From positions 228,559 to 292,558 of the forward strand of contig CAVOQY010000013.1 of the NCBI GenBank assembly GCA_963698465.1: a stretch of 64,000 bases of DNA, given 5' to 3'. The stretch is from an uncultured delta proteobacterium. GTDB taxonomy: Bacteria; Desulfobacterota; Desulfobacteria; Desulfobacterales; UBA2156. The position numbers were made by a program, and so were the translations under genes. Positions 9,156-63,397 of this stretch are shown here, in pieces. Numbering within the stretch: position 1 is the first letter of the stretch; every line of letters starts with the position of its first letter. The notes below the pieces were generated by a model. The model did no database searches and was not told where the DNA came from. It saw only the letters and a program-made list of their open reading frames with translations.

Positions 9156-10110
9156 ACCACCGGGAAGTCTTCACCAAACCCTGCCAAAGTGGCGTTTCCG
9201 GACGGTACCCGATTTCCCTTTTTGCCTTGGAAATGTCAAATGCCTGGTTCTTGGTGAAAAAAAGCAGCCTTCTCCGCGACAGGGGCGGAACCCTGCCGAT
9301 GGGTTCATAAAACCGCTCCAAGATTCGAGCCGCGGGCATGGCCAGGAAGAGCGGGAGGCGCACCCGCGCGATCCTGCAGCCCAGGCATTGCGCGATCATC
9401 CGCGTCAGATTCTGCAGCGTCGTTACCTCTTCTCCTGCCGCGATGTAAGTTTTTCCGGCGGCGTTTGGGTGGAAAGCGCACCGGATCAGCGCCTGGACGA
9501 CATCCTGGACGTAAACCGGGTGAATGAGCGTCCGGCCGCTTCCAATCATCACAAAGCGTTTCTTCTTTATCGCTTCGAACAATTTGAAGGTGCGCCTGTC
9601 CCCCGGGCCGTAGCCCCAGCTTGGCCTCAGGATCGCGTATGGAATTTTTAACTTTGTGCATTCGGAGCGGACCACCTTTTCAGCTTCATGTTTTGTTTTC
9701 TCGTAGGCATTCTGTGGCCTGCAGTCTTGATCCTCGTCTGCCGGCATCTTTTCCAGGGGCCCCAGGACGCCGACGCTGCTGCAGTATACGAACCTCCTGA
9801 TTTTATGCTTGTTCAGGGACTTCAGGAGGTTATAGGTGCCCAGGACATTGCTTTTCCAGTAGGTTTCATAGGCTTCTGGAACGGCGTTGATGATGGAGGC
9901 CAGGTGGAACACAATTTCGACATCGTCTGCGATGCTTCTCAGAGAGTCGGGGTTGGCCAGGTCGCCCATCGTTGCCTGGATCAAAGGCGATTCCCGAATC
10001 GATCCTGTTTTTTCGTTTCTCACCAAAACCCGGTTGGGAAGCCCGTTTTCGACGAGTGTATTCAAAAGGTGGCTTCCGATAAATCCAGTGGCGCCGGTGA
10101 GCAGGATCAT
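9133..10110 (-). CDS. NAD-dependent epimerase/dehydratase (extended SDR)
   Basis: 325 aa; 'LLTGATGFIGSHL' Rossmann motif and 'YEKTKHEAE' (YxxxK). Confidence 0.9.
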   Translation of the reverse strand: MILLTGATGFIGSHLLNTLVENGLPNRVLVRNEKTGSIRESPLIQATMGDLANPDSLRSIADDVEIVFHLASIINAVPEAYETYWKSNVLGTYNLLKSLNKHKIRRFVYCSSVGVLGPLEKMPADEDQDCRPQNAYEKTKHEAEKVVRSECTKLKIPYAILRPSWGYGPGDRRTFKLFEAIKKKRFVMIGSGRTLIHPVYVQDVVQALIRCAFHPNAAGKTYIAAGEEVTTLQNLTRMIAQCLGCRIARVRLPLFLAMPAARILERFYEPIGRVPPLSRRRLLFFTKNQAFDISKAKREIGYRPETPLWQGLVKTSRWYEKNGWF

Positions 10111-18108: not shown

Positions 18109-18240
18109 GAGACCTTTAAAAACGGCAATTTCCGTCATGCCGGACTTGATCCGGCATCCAGAAGTGATTGAAATTACTGGATCCCGGCTTTTGCCTGGAT
18201 GACGAATATGGAATTCTTCAAAGATCTCAGAGTCTCAAAC
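18109..18240 (+). repeat. REP/MITE-like double-hairpin element, copy A
   Basis: gagacctttaaaaacggcaatttccgtcatgccggacttgatccggcatccag...actggatcccggcttttgcctggatgacgaatatggaattcttcaaag. My by-eye alignment puts it at about 92% identity to the reverse complement of 26820..26951. It contains two GC-rich stem-loops. Confidence 0.85.
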
Positions 18241-22062: not shown

Positions 22063-23244
22063 TCAGGTTCCCGATCGGTTCTCGAGGGTTGCGTAGATCT
22101 TTTCCGTTTTTTGAAGGTAGCTTTCCAGGCTGTATTTGGTCTCCGCAACGCCGACGGCGTTCTTCACTATCTTTATTCTGAGAGAATCATCGCGGAGCAA
22201 CCTTATAATGCCTTCCGCAAAGGCTTGAGGGGTAGCCTCCGTCAGCACGGCGATGTCCTCATCAAGCACCTGGGTGTGGGTGGGATGCCGTGTTGCCACG
22301 ATCGGTCTTCCGGAACGCAAATACGAATAGATCTTCAACGGGGTATTGGTTCCGTGGATCCGTGGCGAAACCAGCATGTCCGACAGCTCGACAAACAGAG
22401 GGATCAGGTTCGGCCAAACTTGCCCTGTAAATACGAAATGGTCCCTCAAGCCCAGTCCCTCAGTCTGTTTGCGGTAGGATTCGATCTGTTCCGGGCTACC
22501 CCCCACGAGAATGAAAATTGCCTCGGGATGCTCCTGAAGCACGAGCCCGGCCGATTCGACAAGGAGCCCTATGCCTTGATAGGACTCGAAGGTCCCCGTA
22601 TAGAGGATCTTAATCTTACCGTCGATTCCGAATTTTTTCACCAGATCTGCAGCTGTTTCGCTGGCGGGGTCCAGCACCCAGGTATTGTCCACCACGTTTT
22701 CGATGAGCACCTGATTTTTCCCGGGTATTAATTTCTTCACGTGGTCAAGAAGCGCGGGGCAGATGGTGATTACCGCGTCGGCCTCCTTCAAGGTCTTTCT
22801 TTCAAGGCGCTCAAAAGCGCGAATGAGAAATCTGGAGGTCGTGAATTTGAAATTTTCCAGCTGCTGGGGAAGGGAGGAGTGCATGTCGTAAAGATGCTTC
22901 ACTTTGAAGATTTTCGACAATCCTGTCGAAAAGAACCCGGCTTCCTCGTGGGAGTGAATAACGTCGTACCGGTTTTTCAATAAGAGCTGGATGGTCTTCA
23001 GGAGGACGAAGAAATCAAGCACCACCTTTGTCTTGGAAGGCCCAATGTCGATGCGGCGGACAAAAGGAATCCTTGGGGTACGTACGATGGACACGTTTTT
23101 GATGGCGACATCCTCTCCGAGCGGATAAGTGACCAGATCCACCTCGTGACCCAATCTTGACAAGGCGTACAGGCGGTAAAGGACGCTGAAGGGTGTTCCT
23201 CTGGGTGAAAAAAAGGGCTGGGGCGCGATCATCAGGACCTTCAT
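22063..23244 (-). CDS. GT4 (GT-B fold) glycosyltransferase
   Basis: 393 aa; 'MKVLMIAPQPFFSPRGTPFSV' N-terminus and a C-terminal Glycos_transf_1-like region ('ILVGGSPEQ', 'SPRIHGTNTPLKIYSYLRSGRPIVAT'). Its ATG overlaps the CotH stop (ATGA). Confidence 0.85.
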   Translation of the reverse strand: MKVLMIAPQPFFSPRGTPFSVLYRLYALSRLGHEVDLVTYPLGEDVAIKNVSIVRTPRIPFVRRIDIGPSKTKVVLDFFVLLKTIQLLLKNRYDVIHSHEEAGFFSTGLSKIFKVKHLYDMHSSLPQQLENFKFTTSRFLIRAFERLERKTLKEADAVITICPALLDHVKKLIPGKNQVLIENVVDNTWVLDPASETAADLVKKFGIDGKIKILYTGTFESYQGIGLLVESAGLVLQEHPEAIFILVGGSPEQIESYRKQTEGLGLRDHFVFTGQVWPNLIPLFVELSDMLVSPRIHGTNTPLKIYSYLRSGRPIVATRHPTHTQVLDEDIAVLTEATPQAFAEGIIRLLRDDSLRIKIVKNAVGVAETKYSLESYLQKTEKIYATLENRSGT

Positions 23245-25385
23245 GTCTTCAGGCCTCTTTCCGTATCCAATGCCGCATGTACGCCATCGAAAAAAACGGC
23301 TTCGACGAAAGTTTCCGTTTGGATACCCAGGGCAAGGCTTATTCCATGACGTTTCTCCCCGTTCACAATCCAGTGGGAAAAATTTTCCTCGTTCGGGGTT
23401 TCAAGACGGATATCCACCTGCTGGCCTTCGAAATACCAGCCCTGGTATCCGGCCTTTTCGGGATAGCCGTCAATCACAAATTCAACGCCGGACGGACCCG
23501 TCACCGAACACTTCAAGCTTTTTCCCACCGGGTTCGGCTGTCCATAAAACTGTTCGAGTTCATTCCGAAGGTGGCCCGGCCTTTTTTTGAAAAATTCGCG
23601 GACTGTTTTCCCGTTGAAGTAAGGAACCTGGCCGAACATTTCGCGGGAGAGCGCTTCGTAGTGATCGACTCTGGAATCCAGCCAGGAGGCGTTGATACCG
23701 TGATTCAGCATATCGGTGAACAGGCGGAGGAAATATCGATGATATTCAGGAGATTCCGTCATCAACCGCTTGAACAGTTCCATCCGGAAGAAAGGCTGGA
23801 ATGTCAGCGGAAAACCCCGCTGCTGCCACAATTCTCCGGGAAAACCCCATCCTGGGTAGTCAATGAAGGAGACATCAAGATCCCAGAGGATCCAGGACCA
23901 TTTGGGCTTCGTTTCCCGGTGGTCGAGAAGCGCTGCCCCCTGCTCGTTGTCCCAGTTTCCCAAAAAGACCGTCGCGATAATGAAGCGGGAAAAATTTTCG
24001 ATATCGATCCACCGGTTGACTTCTTCCCAGGAGAGCTTTTCCATCTTTTTGAAGCGCTCCTCCAATCGGTCGTAGCGCTGTTGGTCTTCAACTGCGTTGT
24101 TGGTGTTGTTGAGACGTACGAACGAAAAATCCCTGTGCCTAAGGCGGTATTCCCACTGTTGTTTGTCAAGATGTTCTGCAGCAAAATAGGCGCTGTCGGA
24201 GGGCGGTTTGCCGTTGAGCAGAAAGATCACCGGCCGGATTTCCGGGGTGATGCACCCGATCTTTCTCGCGATGTCAAAAGCAAGCAGGTTGTTAAAGCCA
24301 TGGTTTGCCCTGTCGGCCTCAAGCACGATTTTCTTGACGGGCGTTTTTCCCGAATCAAAGAGCACCCCCGGAGCGGTCTCCCTGAACCCGTACTTTCTTC
24401 GAAAGCAAAGCCGGAAGCTTTCCCTCAGGTGCCGGGTGCTCGACCCCTGGAGCCTCAGGCCAGCGCTGCTCGAAAATTGCAGTGCCCCGTTTTCGAAATA
24501 CGAGACATATGCCAACCTTTCCCATCTTTGCCCCCGCTGCCACCAGTTGTGGGCGATGCCCCAATTTTCGTGATCCAAGGCGTCCTTATCGATCGCCACC
24601 GAAAGGGTCGGAACTTTTTTTAAAAGATATTCCTTTGTAACGATGGTGCTGCTGGGAAAGGCTGCGGTGCCACCGGGATTGGCGGCATAGGCGTATTCCG
24701 AAACTCCCCGTTTCCTGGGAAAAAGCGGCTCGGAGATATATCTTTTCTCGACGACGGCCGATTTTGCGGCTTCAACAGGCATTTCCAATTGAGAGTCGTC
24801 TCCAGATGTCCGCAGAAGAATGCCTTCGGGGCCGGATTCCATCTTAAGGATCCCGTTTTTCGGAGCGATCTTTTTCAGGGATTTTTCGTCTTCCATCCGG
24901 ATCGTCTCATATCCCGCCTGCTCGATTCGGATGCCCTTGAGCGTCATCTCGGAAGGTCTGTCCGAAGGATCGATCCTCAGCCATCGAATGGCGTTCAATC
25001 CGGAAAGGATGAAATAATAGATTTCCTGTTCGGGCCTGGTCAACACGATGTACGAACGCGATTCGGAATAGCTGCGGTCGTCTCCCGCCCAGTAGACCTG
25101 GATCTTTCCCTCGCCCCGGGTGTGCAGCTTAACCTGCATCAGGGCGCTTTGTTGGATTATCCTCGATGGTTCGTCTCCCGGAATGACGTGAATCACGGAC
25201 AGGTCCTTCAAGAGACTTCCCAGGGCCCCGTAATCGAAAATCCCCATCGGGACGGTCTGTTCTCTGAACCGATCCAGCATCGCGCTGAAATGGGGCGAAT
25301 GCTCCAGGACTCCTCCTGCAATGATGAAAAAAAGGAGACCGGCAAGGGTCCACAGAAAAACGGAGCGTTTACCGAGGGTTTTCAC
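23241..25385 (-). CDS. CotH-family (atypical kinase) protein with an N-terminal signal-anchor and an N-terminal beta-rich module
   Basis: 714 aa. TM segment 'VFLWTLAGLLFFIIAGGV'. CotH-like blocks 'LRLQGSSTRHLRESFRLCFRRKYG', 'NLLAFDIARKIGCITPEIRPVIFLLNG', 'FSRFIIATVFLGNWDNEQGAALLD' and 'WSWILWDLDVSF'. GTG start lies 3 nt after the upstream TGA. Confidence 0.8.
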   Translation of the reverse strand: MKTLGKRSVFLWTLAGLLFFIIAGGVLEHSPHFSAMLDRFREQTVPMGIFDYGALGSLLKDLSVIHVIPGDEPSRIIQQSALMQVKLHTRGEGKIQVYWAGDDRSYSESRSYIVLTRPEQEIYYFILSGLNAIRWLRIDPSDRPSEMTLKGIRIEQAGYETIRMEDEKSLKKIAPKNGILKMESGPEGILLRTSGDDSQLEMPVEAAKSAVVEKRYISEPLFPRKRGVSEYAYAANPGGTAAFPSSTIVTKEYLLKKVPTLSVAIDKDALDHENWGIAHNWWQRGQRWERLAYVSYFENGALQFSSSAGLRLQGSSTRHLRESFRLCFRRKYGFRETAPGVLFDSGKTPVKKIVLEADRANHGFNNLLAFDIARKIGCITPEIRPVIFLLNGKPPSDSAYFAAEHLDKQQWEYRLRHRDFSFVRLNNTNNAVEDQQRYDRLEERFKKMEKLSWEEVNRWIDIENFSRFIIATVFLGNWDNEQGAALLDHRETKPKWSWILWDLDVSFIDYPGWGFPGELWQQRGFPLTFQPFFRMELFKRLMTESPEYHRYFLRLFTDMLNHGINASWLDSRVDHYEALSREMFGQVPYFNGKTVREFFKKRPGHLRNELEQFYGQPNPVGKSLKCSVTGPSGVEFVIDGYPEKAGYQGWYFEGQQVDIRLETPNEENFSHWIVNGEKRHGISLALGIQTETFVEAVFFDGVHAALDTERGLKT

Positions 25386-25388
25386 GCC

Positions 25389-26093
25389 TCATAATTCCCC
25401 GGGGTTGCTGGAAAACAGATTCACCCTGGAATTGTTCACGATACCCTTGAGCTTCTTTTCAAGCTCCAAATAGAGATCCACATTGATCTTGGAAAGGGAG
25501 CAAGACAGAATCGTCTCCGAGTCATTCACCGTGATCCCGTCGATTTTTCCCTTCGGCAAAAGCGACCGGATCGCCGCCACGAGCTGTGGGCTTTTTGCTT
25601 CATATTCCGAAGTGGGGACCTTGATGATCAACATCCCCTTATCCGATTTTCCGGCCAGAAGGCTGCTGCTGAAGTGAATCAGACAAATGGCGGCAACCGC
25701 AACGAGAAGGATGATCGACAGAAAAAGGATATTGAAAATGGCGCAGCTGATGGATGACGCGATGATGAGCATGATAAAACCGATTTCCTCGGGTTCTTTA
25801 ACCGGGGTTCTGAACCTCACGATGGACAGTGCGCCAAGAAGGCCCAGGGAAAGGGGAAGCGAGAACTGGATGCAGATAAAGATGGCCGTGATGGAAACGG
25901 AAAGCAGCGGAAAGCTTCGATGGATCTTGCTCCCGGTGGCCCCCGCCCTTGAAAAATGAACGTAAAGAAAGGAAATAAAAAAAGCGCAAAGCAGCGATAT
26001 CAATAACACGAAAAAGAACGGAAAAAAACCGATGTCGGCCATTTTGGGATTCGAAAAACTGTTCAGCAGTTTCGACAGATCAATCTTTTCCAT
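25389..26093 (-). CDS. DUF4956-family membrane protein
   Basis: 234 aa with 4-5 TM helices; signature-like 'LGALSIVRFRTPVKEPEEIGFIM'. Confidence 0.75.
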   Translation of the reverse strand: MEKIDLSKLLNSFSNPKMADIGFFPFFFVLLISLLCAFFISFLYVHFSRAGATGSKIHRSFPLLSVSITAIFICIQFSLPLSLGLLGALSIVRFRTPVKEPEEIGFIMLIIASSISCAIFNILFLSIILLVAVAAICLIHFSSSLLAGKSDKGMLIIKVPTSEYEAKSPQLVAAIRSLLPKGKIDGITVNDSETILSCSLSKINVDLYLELEKKLKGIVNNSRVNLFSSNPGEL

Positions 26094-26150
26094 TGATTTT
26101 TCCTAATGTCGGCAGGTTTGGAGAAGAAGCCCGAAGCTCCTTGAAAGGGC

Positions 26151-26861
26151 TCAGCCTCTTTTCATCCGTTCGAAGCAGGTTTTGTACTTTGAAAACGACT
26201 CTTTCCTGCAGCCCAGGCCCAAGACCGGGGTGAGAGCCCGTGGAAGTTCGTCGAATGGCCCTTTGATCTCGAAGACTCCGTTTTCCAGAAAAAGGGATGG
26301 GGGCTGCGCAAAGAAGAGTGTATTTGCCTTCGGCGCCGAGATGTCGCAGTCCACGCAAATACGAGCGCCGGAAACCGGTTCGACAAACCGCCACCGCTTG
26401 TAGGTGATCTGGATCGTGGGGAAAAGGCTCTCCCCGAAAAGCTCCCCTTCTGCCCTTAAAAGAAGCGAAATTTCAAAAAAAGCGTCCGCGGTCAGCTCCG
26501 CCCGATCCAGGAACCATCCCGGAATTTCGCATTTTTTCTTTCTCTTTTTCCGAGCGGTGCCTGTTTTTCGCTTGACCTCGAGAAATGAAACCTCTCCATG
26601 CCCCTCGAGCTCGCTTTCAGAGTACCACCGGATCCTGTATTTCGACTTGAGGTGATCGCTGTTGACCTTTTCATTGAGCGACCGCAGGTCCACCGTATCG
26701 AAATAAATGCTGGAAACGACATTGTACGGAAAAAGAGGGTCCGGCAGGCAGCAGTATTGGACATAGCCCAAAACACTGGGAAGACGTCCATTTGAAAAGA
26801 CGTACTTCTGTTCATAGTCCAATGATTCTATGAGGCCTTTGAATAATTCCATATTCGTCAT
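26151..26861 (-). CDS. VTC-domain (polyphosphate-polymerase-like, CYTH/triphosphate-tunnel) protein
   Basis: 236 aa; 'YEQKYVF', 'SIYFDT', 'KYRIRWY', 'FLEVKRK', 'ITYKRWRF', 'RICVDCDI', 'VFEIKG', 'SKYK'. These are the alternating charged strands expected of a tunnel fold. The start codons (26861 or 26852) lie inside repeat copy B. Confidence 0.75.
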   Translation of the reverse strand: MTNMELFKGLIESLDYEQKYVFSNGRLPSVLGYVQYCCLPDPLFPYNVVSSIYFDTVDLRSLNEKVNSDHLKSKYRIRWYSESELEGHGEVSFLEVKRKTGTARKKRKKKCEIPGWFLDRAELTADAFFEISLLLRAEGELFGESLFPTIQITYKRWRFVEPVSGARICVDCDISAPKANTLFFAQPPSLFLENGVFEIKGPFDELPRALTPVLGLGCRKESFSKYKTCFERMKRG

Positions 26862-26951
26862 CCCGGCAAAAGCCGGGATCCAGTCATTTCAAATAGTTCT
26901 GGATGCCGGATCAAGCCCGGCATGACGGAAATTGCCGTTTTCAAAGGTCTC
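26820..26951 (-). repeat. REP/MITE-like double-hairpin element, copy B (inverted relative to copy A)
   Basis: ...cctttgaataattccatattcgtcatcccggcaaaagccgggatccagtcatttcaaatagttctggatgccggatcaagcccggcatgacggaaattgccgttttcaaaggtctc. Hairpin 1 is atcccggc/aaaa/gccgggat; hairpin 2 is atgccgg/atcaagc/ccggcat. Confidence 0.85.
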
Positions 26952-27038
26952 TCTGTCTTCGGTTTGCTTTCGGAATTCTTTTCCATGGGAAAGGTGCTCT
27001 CATTGCTGAAAGCGTAAAAGCCGTTGAGTCGATCATCT

Positions 27039-27069
27039 TCGTGATGCCGGATTCAATCCGGCATCACGA
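27039..27069. repeat. Solitary perfect 13-bp stem-loop related to hairpin 2 of the REP family
   Basis: tcgtgatgccgga-ttcaa-tccggcatcacga. No flanking T-tract on either strand. Confidence 0.8.
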
Positions 27070-27140
27070 ACCTATTGAAATCGCAGAATTAGCGCTGAAG
27101 TTTCACTGCGCTTCGGGATTTTACCTAACGCAAAGAGGAT

Positions 27141-29222
27141 CTAACGGCCTTTCGTTTTTCTTGCTCTCAGGAAAGCGGCAACCAGGAGAAGCGGCACAAA
27201 GAGAAAGATTCCCACGATCGAGGCGGCACTCCAAAGGCCGGCACTGACGGCGAGGCCACAGACCCATGCCACCGGGTAAAGGGCGCTCCGGACGACCGAT
27301 TTGAGCGCATCGCTGTTCGCTATCTGTCGAGCAAGGGCGGGCGAATGGTGATAGTACCATCGAACGAGCTTTTTTCCTATTGCATTTTCAACTAAAAAAC
27401 GATCCCGGAACTTCCGAAGTGTGACCACATGTCCTTCAAGAGGCGACCCGAAAGCCGCCGTGGCGATAAAGCAGCCTTTGGAAGGACTTTCCAGGGTTTT
27501 CAAGGCGAGGACATTCCCCTTTACAGTGAGATAATTATTGGAGGCCACCAGTCGAAAGTAGTAGGTGCTGTTTTCTGAAAGGTCGTCTTTGCCGATGCTG
27601 ACCGGGATTTCCGCGTTCCCCGGTCTCACCTCCACCACCGTTGTCTTCCCCCCGAAGTTCGTGTCATATCCGAATTCGAAGAAACATCGTACGGGATAAC
27701 CCCGGGGTTTCACGCGACCGTTAAACACGACCGAACTTTCGGCTACATCCGTGGCATCGAGCGTCACGGCTGAAAGCTCCGGGAGCGCCTTGAACCACGT
27801 AGATGCCATCACTTTGTAGCCGTCCATGTTGGGGTGGATGCCATCGTAGTTCAAAGCATACCATGAGGGCGACATGGCGGCATATTGATCCGCCAGCGGG
27901 ATCTTCTCCTGGGAGGCAAGATTTACAATTTCGGGATAATAGGCCGCGATGTTTTTTTCCGGGCTCTTCGTATCCGGCGTGAGCGTTGCGATAACCGGGA
28001 TGGCGTTGTAGAACCGGCTCCAGTTGATCATGGCGCGAAGATTGTAAATGGTGGAAGGCAGCGAAATCCCGAAATAGAGAAAATCGTTGGTTCCCTCCAG
28101 GATGAGAACGTACTTGGACCTGTGCCTTGCCAGGACGCTGCTGATCCTGCTGACACCGACTCGCGTCGACTCTCCCCCAACCCCGTAATTTAGGACCTGG
28201 ATCGGCCAACCGGTCCCCTTGCCAAGGGCCTCGAGAAATGGCTCATATCCGCCGATGCGTCTCCCTTCCCCGCTGAAACTGACATAAGGTTCGCCCACGG
28301 TGATGCTGTCCCCGAAGCCGATGATAACGTTTTGCCCCACCTGATCGGGAGATGTCGACAATTGCAACGGTGATCCAGATTCTCCTCGGGTCGCCTCCAT
28401 CGTCTCTTGAATGCGAAATGCCCATTTCTTATCATCCATTTTCACGTGCATCGAAGCCAGAGTCGGATTTTTCACAAATTCAGGAAGGTTTGGAGACACT
28501 TGGGCAACCTGTTCCATGAGTGAACGGTAATCCTTCCCACCCAGCTCCCCCTCTTGCGACCATCCGGTTCCGGACCAAAATGCCCCATAATCGAGGTATT
28601 CGGCTTCTTGATAGCTTGACCATTTGACCCGAATGGACCCGTCGGCGCTCACCCACAATACGGGGAGGATATCGGGTTCACCGTCATTTCTGTTGACCCT
28701 CGCAGGGGTTTCCCAGTCTGAACCGTTCCATCGGGAGAAAAAGATATCGTCGTCCTGGCCGTCGAAACCGGCCCAAACGACCCACGGGAGGTTCTCCCCG
28801 TCCACCAGGATCGAGGGCGAGGTGTTTGACAAAAGAGGGCTTTGGATCTGCTTGGGTCTGGACCACCCTCTTTCGTCGAAAACGCAATAATACAGGTGGC
28901 TGGACTTGCCTGAGGCTGAGGACCACACCGCCCAGATCACCCCGTCGGTTCCGGCGTCGATAACCGGCATGGTGTTCATCTGGCCCCCGCCTTCCGTCAA
29001 AGCCTGCCTCGCCGTCCATCCGTCTCCATCGAAGCTGCTGTGGTAGATGGGAAAATTGTACCCATCAGGCTCCGCCCACACGATTTCCGCCGTCACAGCG
29101 CCTCCCGCAGTTGCCGCCTGGGCGCTTGCCACATGAAACCCGGCCAAAATGAGGGCCATGAGAACAAATAGGATCTTCTGCATCTTCAGTCGGTAGTTGG
29201 TCATCTGTTTCATTGTTTCCAA
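27141..29222 (-). CDS. Secreted multidomain protein: W-rich beta-propeller-like repeats + SGNH esterase + FN3-like domain + 'CFIATAAFGS' C-terminal membrane-anchor module
   Basis: 693 aa with a signal peptide (KILFVLMALILAGFHVASAQA). Four units of about 50 aa ('VIWAVWSS..', 'PWVVWAGFDGQDDDIFFSRWNGSDW'). SGNH blocks 'IIGFGDSITVG', 'NYGVGGEST', 'LILEGTNDF', 'DGIHPN'. C-terminus 'CFIATAAFGSPLEGHVVTLRKFRDRFL' plus 2 TM helices. Confidence 0.75.
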   Translation of the reverse strand: METMKQMTNYRLKMQKILFVLMALILAGFHVASAQAATAGGAVTAEIVWAEPDGYNFPIYHSSFDGDGWTARQALTEGGGQMNTMPVIDAGTDGVIWAVWSSASGKSSHLYYCVFDERGWSRPKQIQSPLLSNTSPSILVDGENLPWVVWAGFDGQDDDIFFSRWNGSDWETPARVNRNDGEPDILPVLWVSADGSIRVKWSSYQEAEYLDYGAFWSGTGWSQEGELGGKDYRSLMEQVAQVSPNLPEFVKNPTLASMHVKMDDKKWAFRIQETMEATRGESGSPLQLSTSPDQVGQNVIIGFGDSITVGEPYVSFSGEGRRIGGYEPFLEALGKGTGWPIQVLNYGVGGESTRVGVSRISSVLARHRSKYVLILEGTNDFLYFGISLPSTIYNLRAMINWSRFYNAIPVIATLTPDTKSPEKNIAAYYPEIVNLASQEKIPLADQYAAMSPSWYALNYDGIHPNMDGYKVMASTWFKALPELSAVTLDATDVAESSVVFNGRVKPRGYPVRCFFEFGYDTNFGGKTTVVEVRPGNAEIPVSIGKDDLSENSTYYFRLVASNNYLTVKGNVLALKTLESPSKGCFIATAAFGSPLEGHVVTLRKFRDRFLVENAIGKKLVRWYYHHSPALARQIANSDALKSVVRSALYPVAWVCGLAVSAGLWSAASIVGIFLFVPLLLVAAFLRARKTKGR

Positions 29223-29288: not shown

Positions 29289-32200
29289 TCAAGGTACCCG
29301 ATTCACTTTGAGCGAGAAATCTTCGTGTTCTAGCGTCAAGTTCGGGTTGTAACAAGGATCTCCTTGGGCAAGGACTTTGTTCCATTGTCTTTGGAAGTGC
29401 CTGATTTCTTTTTGAAACCGAAATTTTTGTTCAGGGGTTTCTTCGTATCCTCTCGACGCGGACTCGTGATGAACCGCTTCGCAATAAGGTGTAAAAATAT
29501 TAAAAAGGTCTTTTTGCCGCAAACGCAAACAAAAATCAATATCATTTAATGAAACGGCCAGGTTGTCCTCGTCGAGCCCCCCCGTTTCGAGGAAGGCTTT
29601 TCTCTTCACCATCATCATGGCCCCTGAAACCGCACTGACATTTTGAATGCACATCAACCGGTTCCCATAGCCCTTGTCGTCCCCTGGTGCATGCCGATGG
29701 GAATGGCCGGCAAAGCCGGCGATACCGACAATGACCCCGGCATGCTGAATCGTCCGGTTTGGGTAATAGAGTTTTCCTCCAACCGCGCCAACCTCTTCCC
29801 GTTGGGCGTGTTCGAGGAGCGCCTCTATCCAGTCGCAACTGAGGATCTCTACATCATTGTTCAGCAGGAGAAGCATCTCCCCCGAAGCCAAGGAAACCCC
29901 GTAGTTGTTGATTTTCGAGTAATTAAAGGGCACAGGGTACTCGAAAAAGCGGACCCGTGAATCGGCCCCTTCCAACTGCTTCATCAGCCCGAGCGTTTCC
30001 GGCATCCGGCTCCCGTTGTCGATCCCGAGGATTTCGAAGTGGGTCCAGGTCGACTTGGACAAGATGGCCTCGACGCACTTTTTCAGGAAAACGGGCTGGT
30101 CTTTAAAAGGCACAACGATGCTGACCTTCGGGTTCCCCGAAATTTTCCTTTTGACCCGATAGAAAAAGGGCATGTTCGCCTTTTCCACCGATCCTGGGAT
30201 GCTCCGCCGACCAAGAGCGGCTTCCAGCGCCCGTTTCCCGGATTCGTGGGCGTAGCTCTTGTTGGCGGGGTTAAAACTCGTGGAGGATGCGCTTTTTCGC
30301 CAGAAATACGTCACTTTGGGGATATGATGGATTTTAGGTGTTTTTTCGGAAAGCTTCAATATCAGGTCGTAGTCCTGCGCTCCGTCGCATCCCGGATCAA
30401 ACCCTCCTATCGCATCGAAGAGCGTTCTTTTGAATACCAGGAAGTGGGTGATGTAATTGTGCGACAGAAGCAAGTCCGGAGAAAAATCAGGCTTGAAAAT
30501 TGAATCGTGGGCCCTTCCAGCTTCATCGATGAGGGCCTCGTCCGAGTAAATGACATCCGGGTCTTTTTCGTTGATGGCTTTCACCACTTCGATCAGCGCA
30601 TCCATCGTCAACAGGTCGTCGTGGTCCAGAAGCGCGAGGTATTCGCCTGTCGCCATGGCGGCCGCTTCGTTGGTGGCCTGGGAGATGCCTCGGTTTCCAT
30701 CCAGCAGCCTTGTTTTTATCTTTTCGGAATGCATCGCGCATTTCTTTAAAATCTCGCGCACGTGTTTCGTTTCGCTTCCGTCGTCGACAAGGCAAAGCTC
30801 CCAGTTTTTATAGATCTGCCGCCGGACGGACAGGATCATTTCTTCCAGATGTTTTTCGCCGGTGTTGTACACGGGCACAAGGATGCTGATTTTTGGTTTT
30901 TTATTAAGGGCTTCTAAGAACAGATTAGGCTCCCTTTCCTCGAAAATACCGAATTCGAGATAGTGCCCTAAAGGATCCACGCCCGAGCGCGCTACATCGG
31001 AATATTTTCCAAGATAATAGCCGCCGTCGAAAAGGGGGCTCGTCGCTTTTTTTGTCCTCACCCCTCGGATCAGATAGTGCTCAAGAAGGGTTCTGTCCCA
31101 GCGTTTTGCGTCCGGGTGTTGCGCCGTATAGAAGCTGTACGTAAAAAGCGGGTTAGGGTCCCGTCCCTCCTTTGAACCGGACTGGACGTAGTGCTCCAGG
31201 GCGTTTATTCCTGCAGCATGCACGTCCGGGTTGCTTCTCCAATAATAGTAGGTGTCGAACAAGGGGTGAGGGTTGAAGCCCTCCCGGGCTCCCCGGGTAA
31301 GGTAATGTATTAAAGGATTCGTTTGGGTTTCCCGGGCCTGCCGGCAGTATTTAAGATAATAAACGGGATCAAACAGTAAGTGCGGGGTACAACCGTTTTT
31401 CCACCCGGTTTCCAGGTAGTGCGCAAGGGGGTTCACATCGCTCTCAGCCGCCTCAGGGTTTTGACTTTTATAGTACGCCGTGTCGAAAAGCGGATGCGGA
31501 TCAAAGCCTTGCTCTGCGCCCTTCTCCATGTAATGCCTCAGGGGGTTCATCCCGCTCTGGGACACTTCCGGGTTGCGCATCGCGTAATAGTTCGTGCTGA
31601 ACAAAGGGTGCGGATTAAGACCTTCCGCAGCCCCCGCACGTAAAAAGTGCACCAGGGGATTCACACCGCTCTCAGCCGCCCCCGGGTTCTGACTTTTATA
31701 GTACGCCGTGTCGAAAAGCGGATGCGGATCAAAGCCTTGCTCTGCGCCCTTCTCCATGTAATGCCTCAGGGGGTTCATCCCGCTCTGGGACACTTCCGGG
31801 TTGCGCATCGCGTAATAGTTCGTGCTGAACAAAGGGTGCGGATTAAGACCTTCCGCAGCCCCCGCACGTAAAAAGTGCACCAGGGGATTCACACCGCTCT
31901 CAGCCGCCCCCGGGTTCTGACTTTTATAATACGCCATGTCGAACAGGGGATGCGGGTCCCGACCCTCCGCCGCGCCGCTTGTAAGGTAGTGCGTGATGGG
32001 ATCGATCCTCATCGCTTTGACGTCCGGGTTTCTGTTCAGGTAATCAGCCTCGTCGAAAAGGCCTGATTGACGGATGAGCGGGTACTCCCCCCGGACTCTG
32101 AACACCGCGGTTTTCCAGCGGCTCGAATGAACCCTTGCGCCCTTTGAAAATTTCCTCACCGGCGCCGTCAATTTCCACGATGACGATTCCAGCAGGCTTT

Positions 32201-32777
32201 CCCTGATCCTTCGTTCAGCCTCAAGCGTTTCTTTCAGAAATATCGTCTCGCGCCCAAGCTTCTCCAGTTCGGCTTTGATCCCCTGGACCGTTTTTTCGAG
32301 TGCCTCCCCTTTTTCGGCGCCGCGGTCAATCTTTCCGATATATTCCAAAACTTTCTCTCGGTAATCCGTCTGAGTTTCTTGACAAGCCTTCCAAAGATAC
32401 GGAATGGTTTCCTTGCCGACAGCTTCGAACCGTGTCCAGAACGTGACACTCTCGATGGGGGCGTTGAAGACGTGAACGTAAATCTCGGGGGAATCTGTTG
32501 CAAAAATGAGGCGGCGGTCTTGCCTGAACATGGCGTTACTGCTGAAATTGCCGACCTCGAAAACGTGGCCTCCTGGGTTCTGAATTTCGATCTTCATCAG
32601 ATCCAACACCAGGTAATCTTCCGCAGGCCGCAGACAAAGGCTTCGGATGAGCTGTCCTTCTTTGCCCGGTATGAAGGTTATTCTTTCCTCTTTTCGGACA
32701 ATTTCCACCACCAGGTTTCCTTTTTCGGAAAAACCGGAACCCGTGTCCAAAAGAAGTCTGGCGTTGGCAAGCGGCAT
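29289..32777 (-). CDS. Giant glycosyltransferase: N-terminal beta-rich module + coiled coil + 10 x 38-aa repeats + two GT2 domains
   Basis: 1162 aa. Repeats run aa ~241-618 (nt ~30924-32057). GT2-1: 'ISILVPVYNTGEKHL', 'LCLVDDGS', 'GEYLALLDHDD'. GT2-2: 'VSIVVPFKDQ', 'ILGIDNGS', 'LLLLNNDVE'. The ATG shares one base with the upstream TAA (TAATG). Confidence 0.85.
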   Translation of the reverse strand: MPLANARLLLDTGSGFSEKGNLVVEIVRKEERITFIPGKEGQLIRSLCLRPAEDYLVLDLMKIEIQNPGGHVFEVGNFSSNAMFRQDRRLIFATDSPEIYVHVFNAPIESVTFWTRFEAVGKETIPYLWKACQETQTDYREKVLEYIGKIDRGAEKGEALEKTVQGIKAELEKLGRETIFLKETLEAERRIRESLLESSSWKLTAPVRKFSKGARVHSSRWKTAVFRVRGEYPLIRQSGLFDEADYLNRNPDVKAMRIDPITHYLTSGAAEGRDPHPLFDMAYYKSQNPGAAESGVNPLVHFLRAGAAEGLNPHPLFSTNYYAMRNPEVSQSGMNPLRHYMEKGAEQGFDPHPLFDTAYYKSQNPGAAESGVNPLVHFLRAGAAEGLNPHPLFSTNYYAMRNPEVSQSGMNPLRHYMEKGAEQGFDPHPLFDTAYYKSQNPEAAESDVNPLAHYLETGWKNGCTPHLLFDPVYYLKYCRQARETQTNPLIHYLTRGAREGFNPHPLFDTYYYWRSNPDVHAAGINALEHYVQSGSKEGRDPNPLFTYSFYTAQHPDAKRWDRTLLEHYLIRGVRTKKATSPLFDGGYYLGKYSDVARSGVDPLGHYLEFGIFEEREPNLFLEALNKKPKISILVPVYNTGEKHLEEMILSVRRQIYKNWELCLVDDGSETKHVREILKKCAMHSEKIKTRLLDGNRGISQATNEAAAMATGEYLALLDHDDLLTMDALIEVVKAINEKDPDVIYSDEALIDEAGRAHDSIFKPDFSPDLLLSHNYITHFLVFKRTLFDAIGGFDPGCDGAQDYDLILKLSEKTPKIHHIPKVTYFWRKSASSTSFNPANKSYAHESGKRALEAALGRRSIPGSVEKANMPFFYRVKRKISGNPKVSIVVPFKDQPVFLKKCVEAILSKSTWTHFEILGIDNGSRMPETLGLMKQLEGADSRVRFFEYPVPFNYSKINNYGVSLASGEMLLLLNNDVEILSCDWIEALLEHAQREEVGAVGGKLYYPNRTIQHAGVIVGIAGFAGHSHRHAPGDDKGYGNRLMCIQNVSAVSGAMMMVKRKAFLETGGLDEDNLAVSLNDIDFCLRLRQKDLFNIFTPYCEAVHHESASRGYEETPEQKFRFQKEIRHFQRQWNKVLAQGDPCYNPNLTLEHEDFSLKVNRVP
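31441..31945 (-). repeat. Tandem 228-bp coding repeat, about 2.2 copies, near-perfect
   Basis: 31441-31668 and 31669-31896 are identical except for a few bases at the unit starts. A partial third unit begins at 31897. This is also visible as identical antisense ORFs at 31380/31647/31875. Confidence 0.9.
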
Positions 32778-35700
32778 TAATAAACCCTATCGAAAAGCTT
32801 CATCGAAAGGCGCGGAAATTTTCCGTGAAAACTTGTGCGGATGCAATTCAGCAGGAAATCGAAATCCCAGGGTCCCGTGTGTTCTCTTTTCAATCCGCCG
32901 ACACGATCTGCGACCGCCTTTCTGAAAAGAATGAACGGCCCTACCTCGTGGTTGACCTCGAGCATCGGTTCGGCGAAAAGGCTATCCTCCACGCGCACCC
33001 CCTCGACACCTGGAATTTGCTGGTCACAGAAAAGCAGATCTACATCGGGATATCGATTTACCAGACGTACATATTCGAACAGGGCCTCCATACGGGGTGC
33101 AACCTGCTTCAAGAAAAGAAGGAACTCGCCCGAAGCAGTGGAAAGGGCCCTGTTCAGCGCCTCGGGCAGCGGTTCACCTTTTTCTGCGGGGCATCCTCGT
33201 ATGCGTGCATCCTTCTCTTGAGCGCTTTCCGCGACCGGTCCCAGTTCCTCACGGTCCTCTGCATCAAATACCAGGATTGACTCCCAGTTCCGGTAAATCT
33301 GAAGGCAAAGGGAGTCCAGGAATTCCTGCGCCTGGGCTCTGGAAAGTCCGCGGAAATCAACGATCAGGGTGATCAGTGGCTGGTGGATGAATCGATCCAG
33401 CAAGGGATTCGGCTTCTTCTTGGCCGGGATGCCATATTGAAGATAGTGGGCCAGGGGATTGCTCGGGGGACTCGCGGCTTCCGGGTTTTGACTCATATAA
33501 TATAAGGTGTCGAAGAAGGAACAAGGGTTTTTCCCCTGCCCTGCCCCGACTTCGATAAAATGGACAAGGGGGTTTTGCCCTTCCATCAGCGCCTCCAGGG
33601 CTTCCCTCAGGTAATAGTCACTTCGAAATGCCGGGTTGGGGTCCCTGGCTTCTTTCCAGCCGTGTTCCAGGTAGTGCGCCAGAGGGTTGACGCCTGATTC
33701 GCGCACGTCGGGGTTTTGCCGGAGGTAGTACCGGGTGTCGAAAAGGGGGCCGGGGTTGAGCCCTTCTGCCTCGCCTTTCTCCAGGTAATGCACCAGGGGG
33801 TTTTCCCCGGCTTGGAGCGCTTCAGGGCTTTGCGCCAGATAATAGGCCGTGTCGAACACCGGGTTGGGGTTTTTCCCCTCCCGCGCCCCTTCGGTAAGGT
33901 AGTGCACCAGGGGGTTTTGCGCCGACGCCGCTACCTCCGGGTTGCTCCGGAGGTAATAGGCCGCATCGAACACCGGACTGGGGCTCTTGCCTTCCCTTCC
34001 CCCCTTTTCCAGGTAGTGAACCAAAGGGTTCTGCCCTGACCTTGAAACCTCTGGATTTTTTGAAAAATAATAGGAGGAATCGAAAAGGGAACACGGGTTG
34101 CGTCCCTCCCTCCCTCCAGCTTGGAGGAAGTGCGCCAGGGGGTTGACGCCCGACTCCGCCACGTCGGGGTTTTGCCGGAGGTAGTACCGGGTGCCGAAAA
34201 GGGGGCCGGGGTTGAGCCCTTCTGCCTCGCCTTTCTCCAGGTAGTGCACCAGGGGGTTGGCGCCAGATTCCAGCGTCCCGGAGCATTGCGCCAGGTAATA
34301 GGCCGTGTCGAACACCGGGTTGGGGTTTTTCCCCTCCCGCGCCCCTTCGGTAAGGTAGTGCACCAGGGGGTTTTGCGCCGACGCCGCTACCTCCGGGTTG
34401 CTCCGGAGGTAATAGGCCGCATCGAACACCGGACTGGGGCTCTTGCCTTCCCTTCCCCCCTTTTCCAGGTAGTGAACCAAAGGGTTCTGCCCCGCCTCGA
34501 GGCTTTCCGGACCGTTGGAAAGGTACCAGGACGTTTCAAACAGGGGATGCGGGTTTCTCTCTTCTAAGGCACCTGTCTCCAAAAAGTGAACGAGGGGGTT
34601 GATTCCCGACAGGGCGACATCCGGGTTTTTCTCCCGATAGTACCGGGGATCGAAGAGCGGGTTCGGGCGAAACCCTCCGGGTGCGCCTTTTTGCAGGAAA
34701 TGCTCCAGGGAATTTTCCTTCTCTCCCATCTGCTCCCCGACGGCGGACCGGTAATAGCGGGGGTCGAACAGCGGGCTGGGCTTCCGGTTTTCACGGTCCC
34801 CATTTTCCAGGAAGTGCTGGAGAGGATCGATGCCGGACTCTTTCACGTCGCTGTTGTGCTGAAGGTAATAACTTGCATCGAACAGGGGGTGCGTATTCCT
34901 CCCCTCCGTTGCACCGTGCCTGATATAGTCCCAGAGAGGGTCCTTTTTCAAAAAGCCCACTTCCGGGTACCGCAGCCGGTAATAGGAGGGATCGAACAGG
35001 GGGCTTTTTTTCAATTTACGGTAGGCCCGGCAACCGGGGATCGCGCCGGTGAACCCCGCAACCGCAAGGAGATGCAACACGGCAAGCATGCCCTTCCTGA
35101 AAGCCCTGAGCCCCCTCCACCATGGATGGGTTTTGAGGCTTTCCAGTGTCTCTGCCAGTTTCTGGTTTTCGGCTTCCAGGCGAATTATATGGCTTTCTTC
35201 CTGAAATACCTGGGCCTGAAACTGGTGCAGTATCTGATCTTTTACCTGGATTTTTTTGGCTTCCTTTACGATTTCCGAGGCCTCTTCCTGAATGAGATCT
35301 TCCTTTTCCTTCAGGGTTGACAGGTATTTTTCCCTTTCGCGGCTGAAGGCATCCAGGGACTGCGCCAGCGCCTTTTGGGCCAGAATAAAATCCGGCGTTT
35401 TCGGCCAGTCCATTTCAGCTTCCAGGATGAAAAATCCTTCGAGACTCGGCCTGGAAATTGTTTCCGTCACCTTGAACAGGAGATAGGGCTCGGGATTTAG
35501 CGCCGAAAAGATCTCTCCCTGGTCATTTCGGGTAAAAAGAACGTTTTCAAGGATTGCAGAGTCGGCGATCTGCTTGGGGTTTTCCAGTCGCAGGAGGGTT
35601 TCTTCTACGATCCCCGTTTCGGGGACTCTTTTCACCGTGAGCGAGTAAAGCGTGAAAAACCCCAGTCGGTTTGCCGGCTTCAGTTTCAGCCACGCGAGGG

Positions 35701-37507: not shown

Positions 37508-38394
37508 GCAACCATCCTTCCGGTCTTTCCCGCCATCCCGTCAAATACGCCCTTGAGGATGACTTGCGTCACGTCGAGGCGGTTTTGGAGAAGCGTCGAC
37601 AGCGCATGCCTGAAGTGGCGGTAAACCCAGACCGGGTAAAGCAGCAGTCTTAAGCCCTTGTAAAATTTTCTCACATAGAGGTACCGGTTCCGGATGGTGT
37701 AGTAGGCATAGAGTTTTTCCCGGTCCTTGGACGGGTTGTGCAGATGATGCGCCGCTTTTGATAGAGGGTCGATGACGACACGCGAGTTTCTTTTCCCGTC
37801 CGTATTTTCCGACCGGATTCTCTTGCAGAAATCGGCGATTTCCCCGCTGAAAAAATACCGCTCGTCGAGCATCCCTACGCTGCTGAAAACATCGGACTTG
37901 ACCAGCATCGCCGTCCCCGAAACATAGTCCACATCATAGATTTCCTGAGGGTCCTGGGGCTCCTGCAAATGGGTATGGTAATGCCAGGCGATATCCCTGC
38001 CGCCGGCATTCACGAGCCGGCCGGTGTCCCCGTCGTAAAGCAGAGGCCCGATGACGGCAATGTCCGGGTTATCTGCAAGGCTTCCGGTCATCTGCGAGAC
38101 GTCTTTTTCCTCGATGACGGCGTCGTTGTTCAAAAGCAAAACCGCCTCCGCCTTTTTCTTCAAGGCCGCCCGGATGCCGACGTTGCTTCCCCCGGAAAAA
38201 CCGAGGTTTTCACCATTTTGAATCAGTAAAACCTCGCCTGGAAGGCTTCTCAATTTGCGCCGCTCCTCTTCCCTGGAGTTGTTGTCCACCACCACGAGGA
38301 TCGGCTGAAGGCCGGACCACCGGCGTAGATTCGCGACGCAGGAGAGGGTCTCCTCCGAAGCGTTCCAGTTGAGGATGACGACGGCAAGCTTCAT
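37504..38394 (-). CDS. GT2 glycosyltransferase (rhamnosyltransferase-like)
   Basis: 296 aa; 'LAVVILNWNASEETL', 'LVVVDNNSREE', 'NLGFSGGSNVG', 'LLLNNDAV'. ATGA overlap with the upstream gene. Confidence 0.85.
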   Translation of the reverse strand: MKLAVVILNWNASEETLSCVANLRRWSGLQPILVVVDNNSREEERRKLRSLPGEVLLIQNGENLGFSGGSNVGIRAALKKKAEAVLLLNNDAVIEEKDVSQMTGSLADNPDIAVIGPLLYDGDTGRLVNAGGRDIAWHYHTHLQEPQDPQEIYDVDYVSGTAMLVKSDVFSSVGMLDERYFFSGEIADFCKRIRSENTDGKRNSRVVIDPLSKAAHHLHNPSKDREKLYAYYTIRNRYLYVRKFYKGLRLLLYPVWVYRHFRHALSTLLQNRLDVTQVILKGVFDGMAGKTGRMVA

Positions 38395-51604: not shown

Positions 51605-51720
51605 CCTTTAGTAATTCGACGTCCGTCACCCCGGCGAAAGCTGGGGTCCAGGAATTTCAACTGCTTCTGGATGCAGGATCAAGGCCGGCATGACTGAAAT
51701 AGCCGTTTTTAAATGATCTC
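51605..51720 (-). repeat. REP/MITE-like double-hairpin element, copy C (more diverged)
   Basis: cctttagtaattcgacgtccgtcaccccggcgaaagctggggtccaggaatttcaactgcttctggatgcaggatcaaggccggcatgactgaaatagccgtttttaaatgatctc. Its right end overlaps the last codons and TAA of the GT2 gene (51709-51711). Confidence 0.8.
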
Positions 51721-52467: not shown

Positions 52468-52510
52468 TGCATCTGATCTTTATTAAATGATTCTCTAAGA
52501 CAGGGATTAT

Positions 52511-53284: not shown

Positions 53285-53321
53285 TTCCGCTGTGGGCGTT
53301 TTCTCAAGAATTGTTTAAAAG

Positions 53322-54710: not shown

Positions 54711-54717
54711 AAATCTG

Positions 54718-58926: not shown

Positions 58927-58979
58927 GATGGTCTTAGCTGAGTTATTAACTATTGTTTGGGGAAGGTTGTTTTTTCTGT

Positions 58980-61182: not shown

Positions 61183-61233
61183 GCAATCATCCTACAGAAA
61201 GAAACAGAATCTCTAAATAAGTTCTTAGCCATT

Positions 61234-62430: not shown

Positions 62431-62479
62431 GTAAACTAAATGTATTTTGTCTATTTTATAAGGGCTACCACAACTATAA

Positions 62480-63268: not shown

Positions 63269-63397
63269 TCGCTAAACATTTCAAGAAATCAATTTTTGTG
63301 GTTCATCCGGTTTTAGCGTACTTTTAGGTTTGAAAAAAAGTGGACAATCCGGTTTCCTTCTTGGTGAACGCCAATTCAATCAAGGAGGAAAACCCTC

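Follow-up and report, generated by a model that had tools for sequence, protein, structure and literature searches.

A VTC-DUF4956-CotH gene triad in a desulfobacterial glycan cluster is a widespread, self-contained cell-envelope module with a possible role in polyphosphate-dependent phosphorylation outside the cytoplasm

What could a polyphosphate-polymerase-like protein, a multi-spanning membrane protein of the DUF4956 family and a CotH-type atypical kinase do together, and why would their genes lie side by side in a glycan cluster? This question is raised by a 64-kb stretch (64,000 nucleotides, nt) of contig CAVOQY010000013.1, positions 228,559 to 292,558, from an uncultured delta proteobacterium of the Desulfobacterales, which we refer to as the window. 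The triad consists of three open reading frames (ORFs) on the minus strand of the window, in the order VTC, DUF4956 and CotH: the VTC gene (26151-26861) encodes 236 amino acids (aa), or 233 in the public annotation, which starts from Met4; the DUF4956 gene (25389-26093) encodes 234 aa; and the CotH gene (23241-25385) encodes 714 aa from a GTG start. Gaps of 57 nt (VTC-DUF4956) and 3 nt (DUF4956-CotH) separate them, and the CotH stop overlaps by 4 nt (ATGA) the start of a minus-strand GT4-type glycosyltransferase (GT) gene (22063-23244; Pfam Glycos_transf_1 and Glyco_transf_4). These positions, gaps and overlap had been given in an initial annotation of this DNA, and all of them were reproduced from the ORF coordinates, just as every peptide motif that it quoted was found in the translations. 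Its three family assignments also held, since profile hidden Markov model matches exceeded the Pfam curated cut-offs for VTC (PF09359, E=5.4e-15, 56 bits versus 23, profile positions 4-232 of 235), DUF4956 (PF16316, E=4.2e-12, 46.6 bits versus 30.6) and CotH (PF08757, E=1.2e-22, 81.3 bits versus 23.8, aa 310-589). None of the three proteins has a model in NCBIfam.

The three families co-occur far beyond chance, whether DUF4956, VTC or CotH is used as the bait, in keeping with the functional combination that the initial annotation had proposed. For DUF4956, we took the best 80 loci of 561 relatives in species-representative genomes and counted partners within 10 kb. A VTC gene was found in 77 of the 80 loci, a CotH gene in 75 and both in 73, with the canonical VTC, DUF4956, CotH order on one strand in 66; contig ends truncate three of the incomplete loci. 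These loci span Desulfobacterota, Spirochaetota, Planctomycetota, Verrucomicrobiota, Kiritimatiellia, Acidobacteriota, Polyangiaceae, Parasphingorhabdus and Bifidobacteriaceae, and Desulfopila and Verrucomicrobium are among the carriers of the module. When VTC homologs 33-56% identical to the window's protein were used to retrieve public assemblies, DUF4956 and CotH were adjacent in five out of five. Similarly, when CotH served as the bait in metagenome contigs, 36 loci extended 1.6 kb or more upstream, and of these 34 had DUF4956 and 32 had both partners. Moreover, the three proteins diverge in step, as seen from the correlation of their pairwise distances (Mantel r 0.75-0.84, p=0.001), to which shared phylogeny alone would contribute. 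The triad is a widespread, self-contained cell-envelope module, found in at least 561 species-representative genomes and usually in its own small operon, that is inserted into varied surface-polymer contexts.

The initial annotation had described the triad as hard-wired into a glycan operon. This description fits the window and the close relatives L001 and L006, in which the window's arrangement is repeated (the GT4 gene 3' of CotH is also present in L001), and it does not extend to the module in general, as judged from neighbor counts. A co-oriented gene lay within 300 nt downstream of the triad in 34/67 loci and upstream in 34/68. No family dominated these 128 co-oriented neighbors, and GT families were a minority: upstream we counted alkaline-phosphatase (AP)-superfamily 'Sulfatase' proteins (8), GT2 (6), GDSL (5), LPG_synthase_TM (3) and GT1/GT4 (2), and downstream GT2 (3), PD40 (3) and LPG_synthase_TM (1). 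AlgX-like proteins also appeared among the envelope polymer-modifying enzymes near the module. The triad stands alone in L002 and L003, and in L004 it adjoins a subtilase, an AMP-binding enzyme, a PP-binding (carrier-type) protein and an MBOAT protein. What these neighborhoods have in common is a link to the cell envelope more than to glycosyltransferases in particular, and the module is autonomous, because its linkage to glycosyltransferases is not general. In the window itself, the product of the GT4 gene was nearest to PEP-CTERM/XrtA stp3 and WcaI-type GTs in NCBIfam, with scores well under the cut-offs.

Several loci depart from the three-gene plan. In Vicinamibacterales-type loci, an AP-superfamily protein of ~680 aa is encoded directly 5' of VTC on the same strand; in L049, L050 and L059 (about 7100-9230) it carries PF00884 at residues ~173-505 after an unassigned N-terminal region of ~170 residues, and ORFs of like size lie at the same position in L064, L069 and L075. 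A ~720-aa protein without a Pfam match follows CotH in L049, with like-sized ORFs in L059, L064 and L069, so that these loci may represent an extended five-gene version of the module. In Desulfocapsaceae/Desulfobulbaceae, an extra 281-301-aa protein without a Pfam match is encoded between DUF4956 and CotH (10703-11548 in L018 and 9896-10801 in L015, with similar gaps in L016, L021, L027, L032, L033, L035, L044 and L057). The inserted protein weakly matched the DUF4956 profile in L015 and L057 (E about 1e-9), and it may be a divergent second membrane subunit. One Thermoanaerobaculia contig (OY761158.1) carries DUF4956 with CotH and no VTC in L054, and DUF4956 with VTC and no CotH in L056; given these split arrangements in one genome, DUF4956 may work with either partner encoded elsewhere. 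An apparent VTC-DUF4956 fusion in L069 was not counted, as part of VTC also lies on a second ORF; VTC pieces on two ORFs at overlapping coordinates suggest a frameshifted assembly.

Single-sequence searches of the PDB with the VTC and CotH proteins gave nothing usable, and profile searches were therefore needed for both. A VTC profile built from 39 homologs and searched against the PDB recovered the catalytic domain of yeast Vtc4 (3g3q, E=6.3e-11), ranked above the inactive Vtc2 domain. In Vtc4, triphosphate is held by K200, R264, R266, K281, Y359, R361, S457 and K458, with E426 binding Mn, and K458 is replaced by Ile/Leu in the inactive Vtc2/3 subunits, as reported in a cryo-electron microscopy (cryo-EM) study of the VTC complex (bioRxiv 10.1101/2023.01.27.525886). 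We found counterparts of all nine ligands in the window's protein, in the same order (K19, R76, R78, K97, Y154, R156, E198, S224 and K225), by profile alignment to 3g3q with a chain offset of +185, the K97/K281 pair being matched by motif likeness (FLEVK versus FVERK) and not by the HMMER alignment. K225 is the counterpart of K458, the marker lysine of active Vtc4. The nine positions are kept in 66-71 of 71 independent loci. This complete set of catalytic residues agrees with the triphosphate-tunnel protein of the initial annotation. An invariant glutamate, E17, lies two residues before K19 ('ExK') where Vtc4 has a threonine, which leaves some room for a hydrolase-type activity.

The bacterial protein also differs from its eukaryotic homolog in several ways. 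A hydropathy scan revealed no transmembrane (TM) segment in it, and by Pfam and hydropathy both the SPX domain and the fused 3-TM (DUF202) domain are missing from it; its tunnel domain is therefore stand-alone. Based on its sequence, the VTC protein is apparently a catalytically competent, Vtc4-type tunnel domain and is predicted to be a soluble, cytoplasmic polyphosphate (polyP) polymerase. As in the eukaryotic complex, the enzyme is paired with a membrane protein, here through adjoining genes, which by analogy invites the logic of coupled synthesis and translocation. The partner differs, however, being DUF4956 and not the 3-TM Vtc1/DUF202 fold.

DUF4956 is the best conserved member of the triad, with more than 4791 relatives, all of which carry PF16316, and ~50% identity across phyla. 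Its core, I75-M108, is invariant in a 23-sequence alignment (IQFSLPLSLGLLGALSIVRFRTPxKEPEEIGFIM), and R93, R95, P97, K99, E100, P101, E102 and E103 are identical in 71/71 loci. An AlphaFold2 (AF2) model places five membrane helices before a beta-alpha-beta-beta-alpha-beta (ACT/ferredoxin-like) domain, with low confidence (pLDDT 64.7) that is too poor for comparison of the membrane domain and leaves only the C-terminal-domain match interpretable. The top Foldseek match of that C-terminal domain was the MgtC C-terminal domain (2lqj), and it was weak (E=5e-3, target TM-score 0.54). MgtC/SapB proteins likewise have a multi-helix membrane domain followed by a small ACT-like domain, which is cytoplasmic in the MgtC-type architecture. 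In this modeled architecture DUF4956 looks MgtC-like, although Pfam at E<=10 gave DUF4956 alone and no MgtC match, and the RFRTPxKEPEE loop is specific to DUF4956. Should the C-terminal domain face the cytoplasm (five TM helices, C-terminus in), the positive-inside rule would place this invariant charged loop on the cytoplasmic face, where the soluble VTC protein could dock. A DUF4956 profile search of the PDB found no solved relative, and no DUF4956 copies were found on plasmids. Transcriptome papers on S. mutans and B. thetaiotaomicron merely list a DUF4956 gene.

These properties bear on the suggestion in the initial annotation that VTC and DUF4956 form a minimal VTC-like machine. The comparison stands as an analogy only, since DUF4956 has no detectable relation to Vtc1 and combines five predicted helices with an ACT-like domain, as opposed to three TM segments.

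An exhaustive HMMER search returned 2142 relatives of the CotH protein, most of them 550-580 aa long and matching query residues ~220-700, whereas the N-terminal 215 residues are common to a minority only. The AF2 model is confident (pLDDT 90.4, pTM 0.82). On the minus strand it comprises a signal-anchor helix (25299-25370, aa 6-29) that follows a basic MKTLGKR and is seen by both hydropathy and AF2, a beta-sandwich (24777-25193, aa 65-203, AF2 strands), a kinase-like core (23544-24695, aa 231-614) with D479 in NWDNEQG and D502/D504 in WDLD, and a C-terminal beta-sandwich (23292-23519, aa 623-698, AF2 strands) that is present in most of the subfamily. Compared with the PDB by Foldseek, the model matched B. 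cereus CotH (5jd9/5jda) best by far (E=3.5e-12, target TM-score 0.73), with other atypical kinases next, and the CotH profile matched 5jd9_A at E=2.5e-9. The profile alignment pairs D224 (NFDG) and D247 (WDYD) of 5jd9 with D479 and D502 of the window, both 23 residues apart. D228 and D251 of B. subtilis CotH, with the same spacing of 23, are catalytic, and their mutation inactivates the protein (PMC7821199), a numbering link to B. cereus CotH that we infer from spacing and motif. Of 71 loci, 69 keep D479, 67 keep D502 and 68 keep D504. The assignment to CotH in the initial annotation extends to both catalytic aspartates, which align with those of B. cereus CotH at identical spacing. R311, R325, R329 and R602 are invariant basic residues of the subfamily. 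A profile limited to the N-lobe did not reach Bacillus CotH, this lobe being unrecognizable by sequence.

The window's protein shares the atypical kinase fold and both aspartates with Bacillus CotH (5JD9/5JDA), yet the two are only 14% identical, and the window's subfamily has Gln-Gly in place of the catalytic-loop Asn. Bacillus CotH is a mother-cell cytoplasmic or coat protein, whereas the window's CotH is predicted to be membrane-anchored and outward-facing and has two extra beta-sandwich domains. Unlike Bacillus CotH, its relatives occur in phyla not known to sporulate and are linked to VTC and DUF4956; the signal anchor and the relatives in non-sporulating lineages argue for a different substrate. 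The prediction that the bulk of CotH is extracytoplasmic, made in the initial annotation, was upheld by the hydrophobic segment found by hydropathy and the AF2 helix at residues 6-29. In a hydropathy scan, a basic N-terminus followed by a hydrophobic segment was found in 120 of 139 full-length representatives of the family, which argues that an outward-facing catalytic domain is the family rule.

The initial annotation had also reported a module shared between CotH and other proteins of the surrounding cluster. An iterated profile search with the N-terminal beta-sandwich (query residues 56-220) detected it in three of them: at aa 717-793, the C-terminus, of a PMT_2-like protein (ORF 54718-57117) that we take to be of GT-C type, at aa 562-653 of a 1576-aa protein (ORF 32777-37507) and at aa 246-298 of a GT2-methyltransferase (ORF 38391-40484). 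The shared module therefore stands at the profile level, with support that we rate moderate because the database was small and the search iterated, and it did not appear by BLASTP, in which CotH showed no similarity to the other cluster proteins. Separately, secondary Foldseek matches over ~100 columns of one CotH beta-sandwich were to PLAT/LH2 proteins (5-lipoxygenase and pancreatic lipase-related protein 2), a structural likeness that hints at a membrane- or lipid-facing domain.

The association of the three genes is already known from the literature. Whitfield et al. 2020 (PMC7112168) reported that Gram-positive pelDEADAFG loci have a conserved accessory group made up of cotH, a polyP polymerase gene and a DUF4956 gene, to which DUF4832 or diguanylate cyclase/phosphodiesterase (DGC/PDE) genes are added, and suggested regulation through protein phosphorylation. 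A 2025 study of S. intermedius (PMC12345266) predicted a secreted CotH-FN3 protein (SIR_1594), a cytoplasmic VTC-like polymerase (SIR_1593) and a 4-TM/ACT protein (SIR_1592), called DUF4956 MgtC-like with an ACT domain, a description with which the weak match of the C-terminal domain agrees, and considered that polyP may remain cytoplasmic. In that study, S. intermedius cells grown in sputum medium lost more than 50% of their aggregation when DUF4956 or CotH was deleted, and Pel went up in the DUF4956 deletion and down in the CotH deletion (PMC12345266). C. perfringens NELoc-2 also bears VTC and CotH genes, and the literature adds streptococci, clostridia and bifidobacteria as hosts of the module, with an effect on Pel-dependent aggregation. 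These papers qualify the statement in the initial annotation that no function had been shown for the combination: the triad was published in 2020 (PMC7112168) and deletion phenotypes in 2025 (PMC12345266). Our finding of the triad in many non-Pel contexts and phyla contradicts the report that the three-gene synteny was not found outside Pel loci (PMC12345266). What is new here is the non-Pel context, the autonomy of the module and its defined residues.

The triad of the window resembles the Pel accessory group in that the same three families are contiguous near exopolysaccharide genes. In both, predictions put CotH outside the cytoplasm (secreted or extracytoplasmic) and VTC inside it, and make DUF4956 a multi-TM protein that ends in an ACT-like domain. 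In contrast, the window is without Pel genes, and its host is a GDP-sugar/GT2/GT4/radical S-adenosylmethionine (radical-SAM) glycan cluster. The gene order is VTC, DUF4956, CotH in the window and, as the SIR_ tags suggest, CotH, VTC, DUF4956 in S. intermedius; the window's CotH has a signal anchor and an N-terminal beta-sandwich, whereas SIR_1594 has a C-terminal FN3 domain. No paper that we found proposes or tests the export of polyP to a CotH outside the cytoplasm.

How might the three proteins act together? The periplasm lacks ATP, so that an outward-facing kinase needs another donor, and polyP is the obvious candidate because a polyP polymerase and a membrane protein are always adjacent to it. 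VTC would make polyP from nucleoside triphosphates at the cytoplasmic face of DUF4956, DUF4956 would move the polyP or its phosphoryl groups through the membrane, and the outward-facing CotH would use this donor to phosphorylate, or to decorate with polyP, a surface glycan or an envelope protein. In the window, whatever polymer the surrounding glycan cluster makes would be the target, and CotH might recognize it via the beta-sandwich shared with the GT-C and GT2 proteins. We tentatively regard polyP export via DUF4956, feeding a CotH kinase on the outside, as the likeliest single explanation of the module. The parts list, the predicted topology, the residue conservation and the linkage are what the analysis shows; the polymerase activity, the transport, and the donor and substrate of CotH are inferred. 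The envelope-related neighbors, including the AP-superfamily proteins 5' of VTC, count for this mechanism, as do the changes in Pel level and aggregation in the S. intermedius DUF4956 and CotH deletions (PMC12345266).

Other extracytoplasmic phosphotransfer without ATP is known, with undecaprenyl pyrophosphate as the donor for LpxT and phospholipids as donors for LtaS, EptA and OpgB. These enzymes have PAP2 and AP-superfamily folds, not kinase-like ones, and to our knowledge polyP is not a donor in any of these systems. A point of likeness is that AP-superfamily proteins are encoded directly 5' of the triad in several loci.

A number of observations weigh against polyP export to CotH. We know of no kinase of the protein-kinase-like fold that uses polyP. 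No experiment has shown polyP synthesis by a bacterial VTC-domain protein, transport by DUF4956 or activity of CotH with polyP. A DUF4956 profile searched against all PDB chains, including the VTC cryo-EM structures 7ytj and 8i6v, gave no VTC match at E<=10, and DUF4956 has no detected similarity to the TM regions of Vtc1/3/4. In CotH, the Asn of the catalytic loop (D+5; DGFVHN in B. cereus), whose role we assume by analogy with canonical kinases, is not kept: the window reads DNEQGA, and Gln482-Gly483 is invariant in its subfamily. Furthermore, the window's CotH has Gln313 (24447-24449) where 64/71 relatives have His (consensus LRxHGG), a substitution shared by three other relatives. The altered catalytic loop and Gln313 suggest that the chemistry of CotH may differ or that the window's copy may be impaired, and the signal-anchor topology of CotH is itself a prediction from hydropathy only. 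Lastly, deletion of VTC in S. intermedius caused no aggregation or Pel phenotype (PMC12345266), and a silent VTC deletion next to active DUF4956 and CotH deletions argues against a strictly linear donor pathway and would be surprising if the donor came from VTC alone.

The same deletions are the starting point for a regulatory alternative, which we consider rather doubtful. CotH would act as a protein Ser/Thr kinase on polymer-synthesis or envelope proteins and would obtain its donor otherwise, while VTC and an MgtC-like, ACT-sensor DUF4956 would serve cytoplasmic phosphate/polyP homeostasis or signaling, with no export. The opposite Pel effects of the DUF4956 (more) and CotH (less) deletions and the silent VTC deletion are consistent with such a role, as are the regulation by protein phosphorylation proposed by Whitfield et al. 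(PMC7112168), the MgtC-like/ACT DUF4956 and perhaps cytoplasmic polyP of the S. intermedius authors (PMC12345266), the protein kinase activity of Bacillus CotH (PMC7821199) and the fact that the top structural match of the DUF4956 C-terminal domain is the MgtC C-terminal domain. This last match has no counterpart at the sequence level, however, and the alternative leaves an outward-facing kinase domain without a periplasmic ATP supply. Moreover, the tight three-way linkage over many phyla and contexts is hard to square with separate compartments and unrelated tasks.

An unlikely variant of the export mechanism makes polyP itself the product: polyP from VTC would pass through DUF4956, and CotH, in the role of a polyP transferase, would link it covalently to a glycan or protein of the surface or anchor it there, to give a polyanionic coat. 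The parts list and topology are those of the polyP-donor mechanism, and the many loci without GT neighbors indicate that the module can act alone. The envelope polymer-modifying neighbors (GDSL, MBOAT, AlgX-like and AP-superfamily proteins) would fit such a coat, and so would the many invariant basic residues of the CotH subfamily (R311, R325, R329 and R602), together with its altered catalytic loop. We know of no precedent for a polyP transferase of the kinase fold, and the absence of a phenotype in the S. intermedius VTC deletion counts against this variant as well.

It is more improbable still that VTC is a triphosphate-tunnel enzyme of a different kind, for example a tripolyphosphatase/NTPase or a cyclase, and that the ACT-like domain of DUF4956 senses its small-molecule product or substrate. 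Hydrolases and cyclases with the same basic and acidic tunnel residues belong to the triphosphate-tunnel superfamily, the invariant E17 of 'ExK' brings the protein nearer to the hydrolase-type ExExK motif than the Thr of Vtc4 does, and the SPX and TM domains of Vtc4 are absent. Against this, VTC is the only family that Pfam reports at E<=0.01, Vtc4 catalytic domains rank first in the PDB, above inactive Vtc2, and K225 corresponds to K458, the lysine that separates active Vtc4 from Vtc2/3. Fortuitous adjacency of three unrelated passengers in a large glycan cluster, for which nothing speaks except the 279-nt gap 5' of the triad, is almost certainly wrong, being effectively refuted by the linkage, which each of the three baits recovers, which holds in two independent collections and many phyla and which depends little on the flanking genes, and by the co-divergence of the three proteins.

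Returning to polyP export, we think it possible, though on balance doubtful, that the triad is a bacterial, ATP-independent system of extracytoplasmic phosphorylation in which DUF4956 is a new polyP conduit unrelated to Vtc1 and polyP is the donor or the attached group. If this were true, the CotH subfamily would hold the first polyP-using kinase of the protein-kinase-like fold, and the module would be a bacterial equivalent, reached by convergence, of the VTC machine of eukaryotes. Phosphorylation outside the cytoplasm without ATP is understood for a few lipid-donor systems only, and here a complete polyP-polymerase active site is paired with an outward-facing kinase fold and a highly conserved, uncharacterized membrane protein. 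Because the module stands on its own and is not tied to Pel, it lends itself to study as a three-gene cassette, for which the residues to mutate are now defined. Showing its function would assign roles to DUF4956 and bacterial VTC proteins, and a possible outcome is a new route of polyP export or a surface-polymer modification relevant to biofilms and virulence.

The glycan cluster of ~60 kb that hosts the triad is a single minus-strand run of glycan-biosynthesis genes at ~2.7-63.3 kb of the window. It encodes a GDP-mannose 4,6-dehydratase, several epimerases, an AsnB-type amidotransferase, more than 12 GT2 and GT4 domains, methyltransferases, B12-radical-SAM and SPASM radical-SAM enzymes, GDSL esterases, MBOAT and LPG_synthase_TM proteins, and PMT_2/GT-C-like proteins. 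No Pel families were found among the 42 window ORFs scanned with Pfam, and no ppk or ppx gene lies in the 64-kb window.

A 279-nt gap with palindromes resembling repetitive extragenic palindromic (REP) elements divides the VTC gene from the upstream GDSL gene; because of it, tight coupling of the triad is shown downstream only. This structured intergenic leader (26862-27140, minus strand) folds with a z of -6.0, matched no Rfam family, and carries no sigma-70 or terminator consensus. The REP-like palindrome, GATGCCGGAT..ATCCGGCATC, occurs in 4 copies in the window (0.02 expected), all of them intergenic in the minus-strand glycan cluster, at 18136-18158, 26902-26924, 27043-27065 and 51670-51692, the second and third of which lie in the leader. 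A riboswitch was ruled out, as there is no Rfam match and the fold is due to a palindrome dispersed in four gaps; the leader structure is a REP-like element and no dedicated regulator.

The 5' neighbor of the triad (27141-29222) encodes a 693-aa protein that combines a GDSL esterase domain with a CFI-box-CTERM sorting domain (NCBIfam NF041770, E=2.4e-26), and an N-terminal hydrophobic, signal-peptide-like stretch can be read off its translation. It is likely a surface-attached polymer esterase. Further upstream, ORFs 29289-32777 and 32777-37507 encode giant GT2-containing proteins of 1162 and 1576 aa. Several offset BLASTP alignments between them point to internal repetition, and the two have in common long tandem arrays of a ~50-aa repeat, 40-46% identical (NPLxHYxxxGxxEGxxPHPLFDxxYY...), to which Pfam assigns no family. 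The GC content of the window falls from ~0.52-0.56 to 0.38-0.46 over its last 12 kb (52001-64000), where the genes, encoding GT2, GT4, radical SAM-SPASM and methyltransferase proteins, stay on the same strand; this low-GC stretch may have entered the glycan cluster through a separate acquisition.

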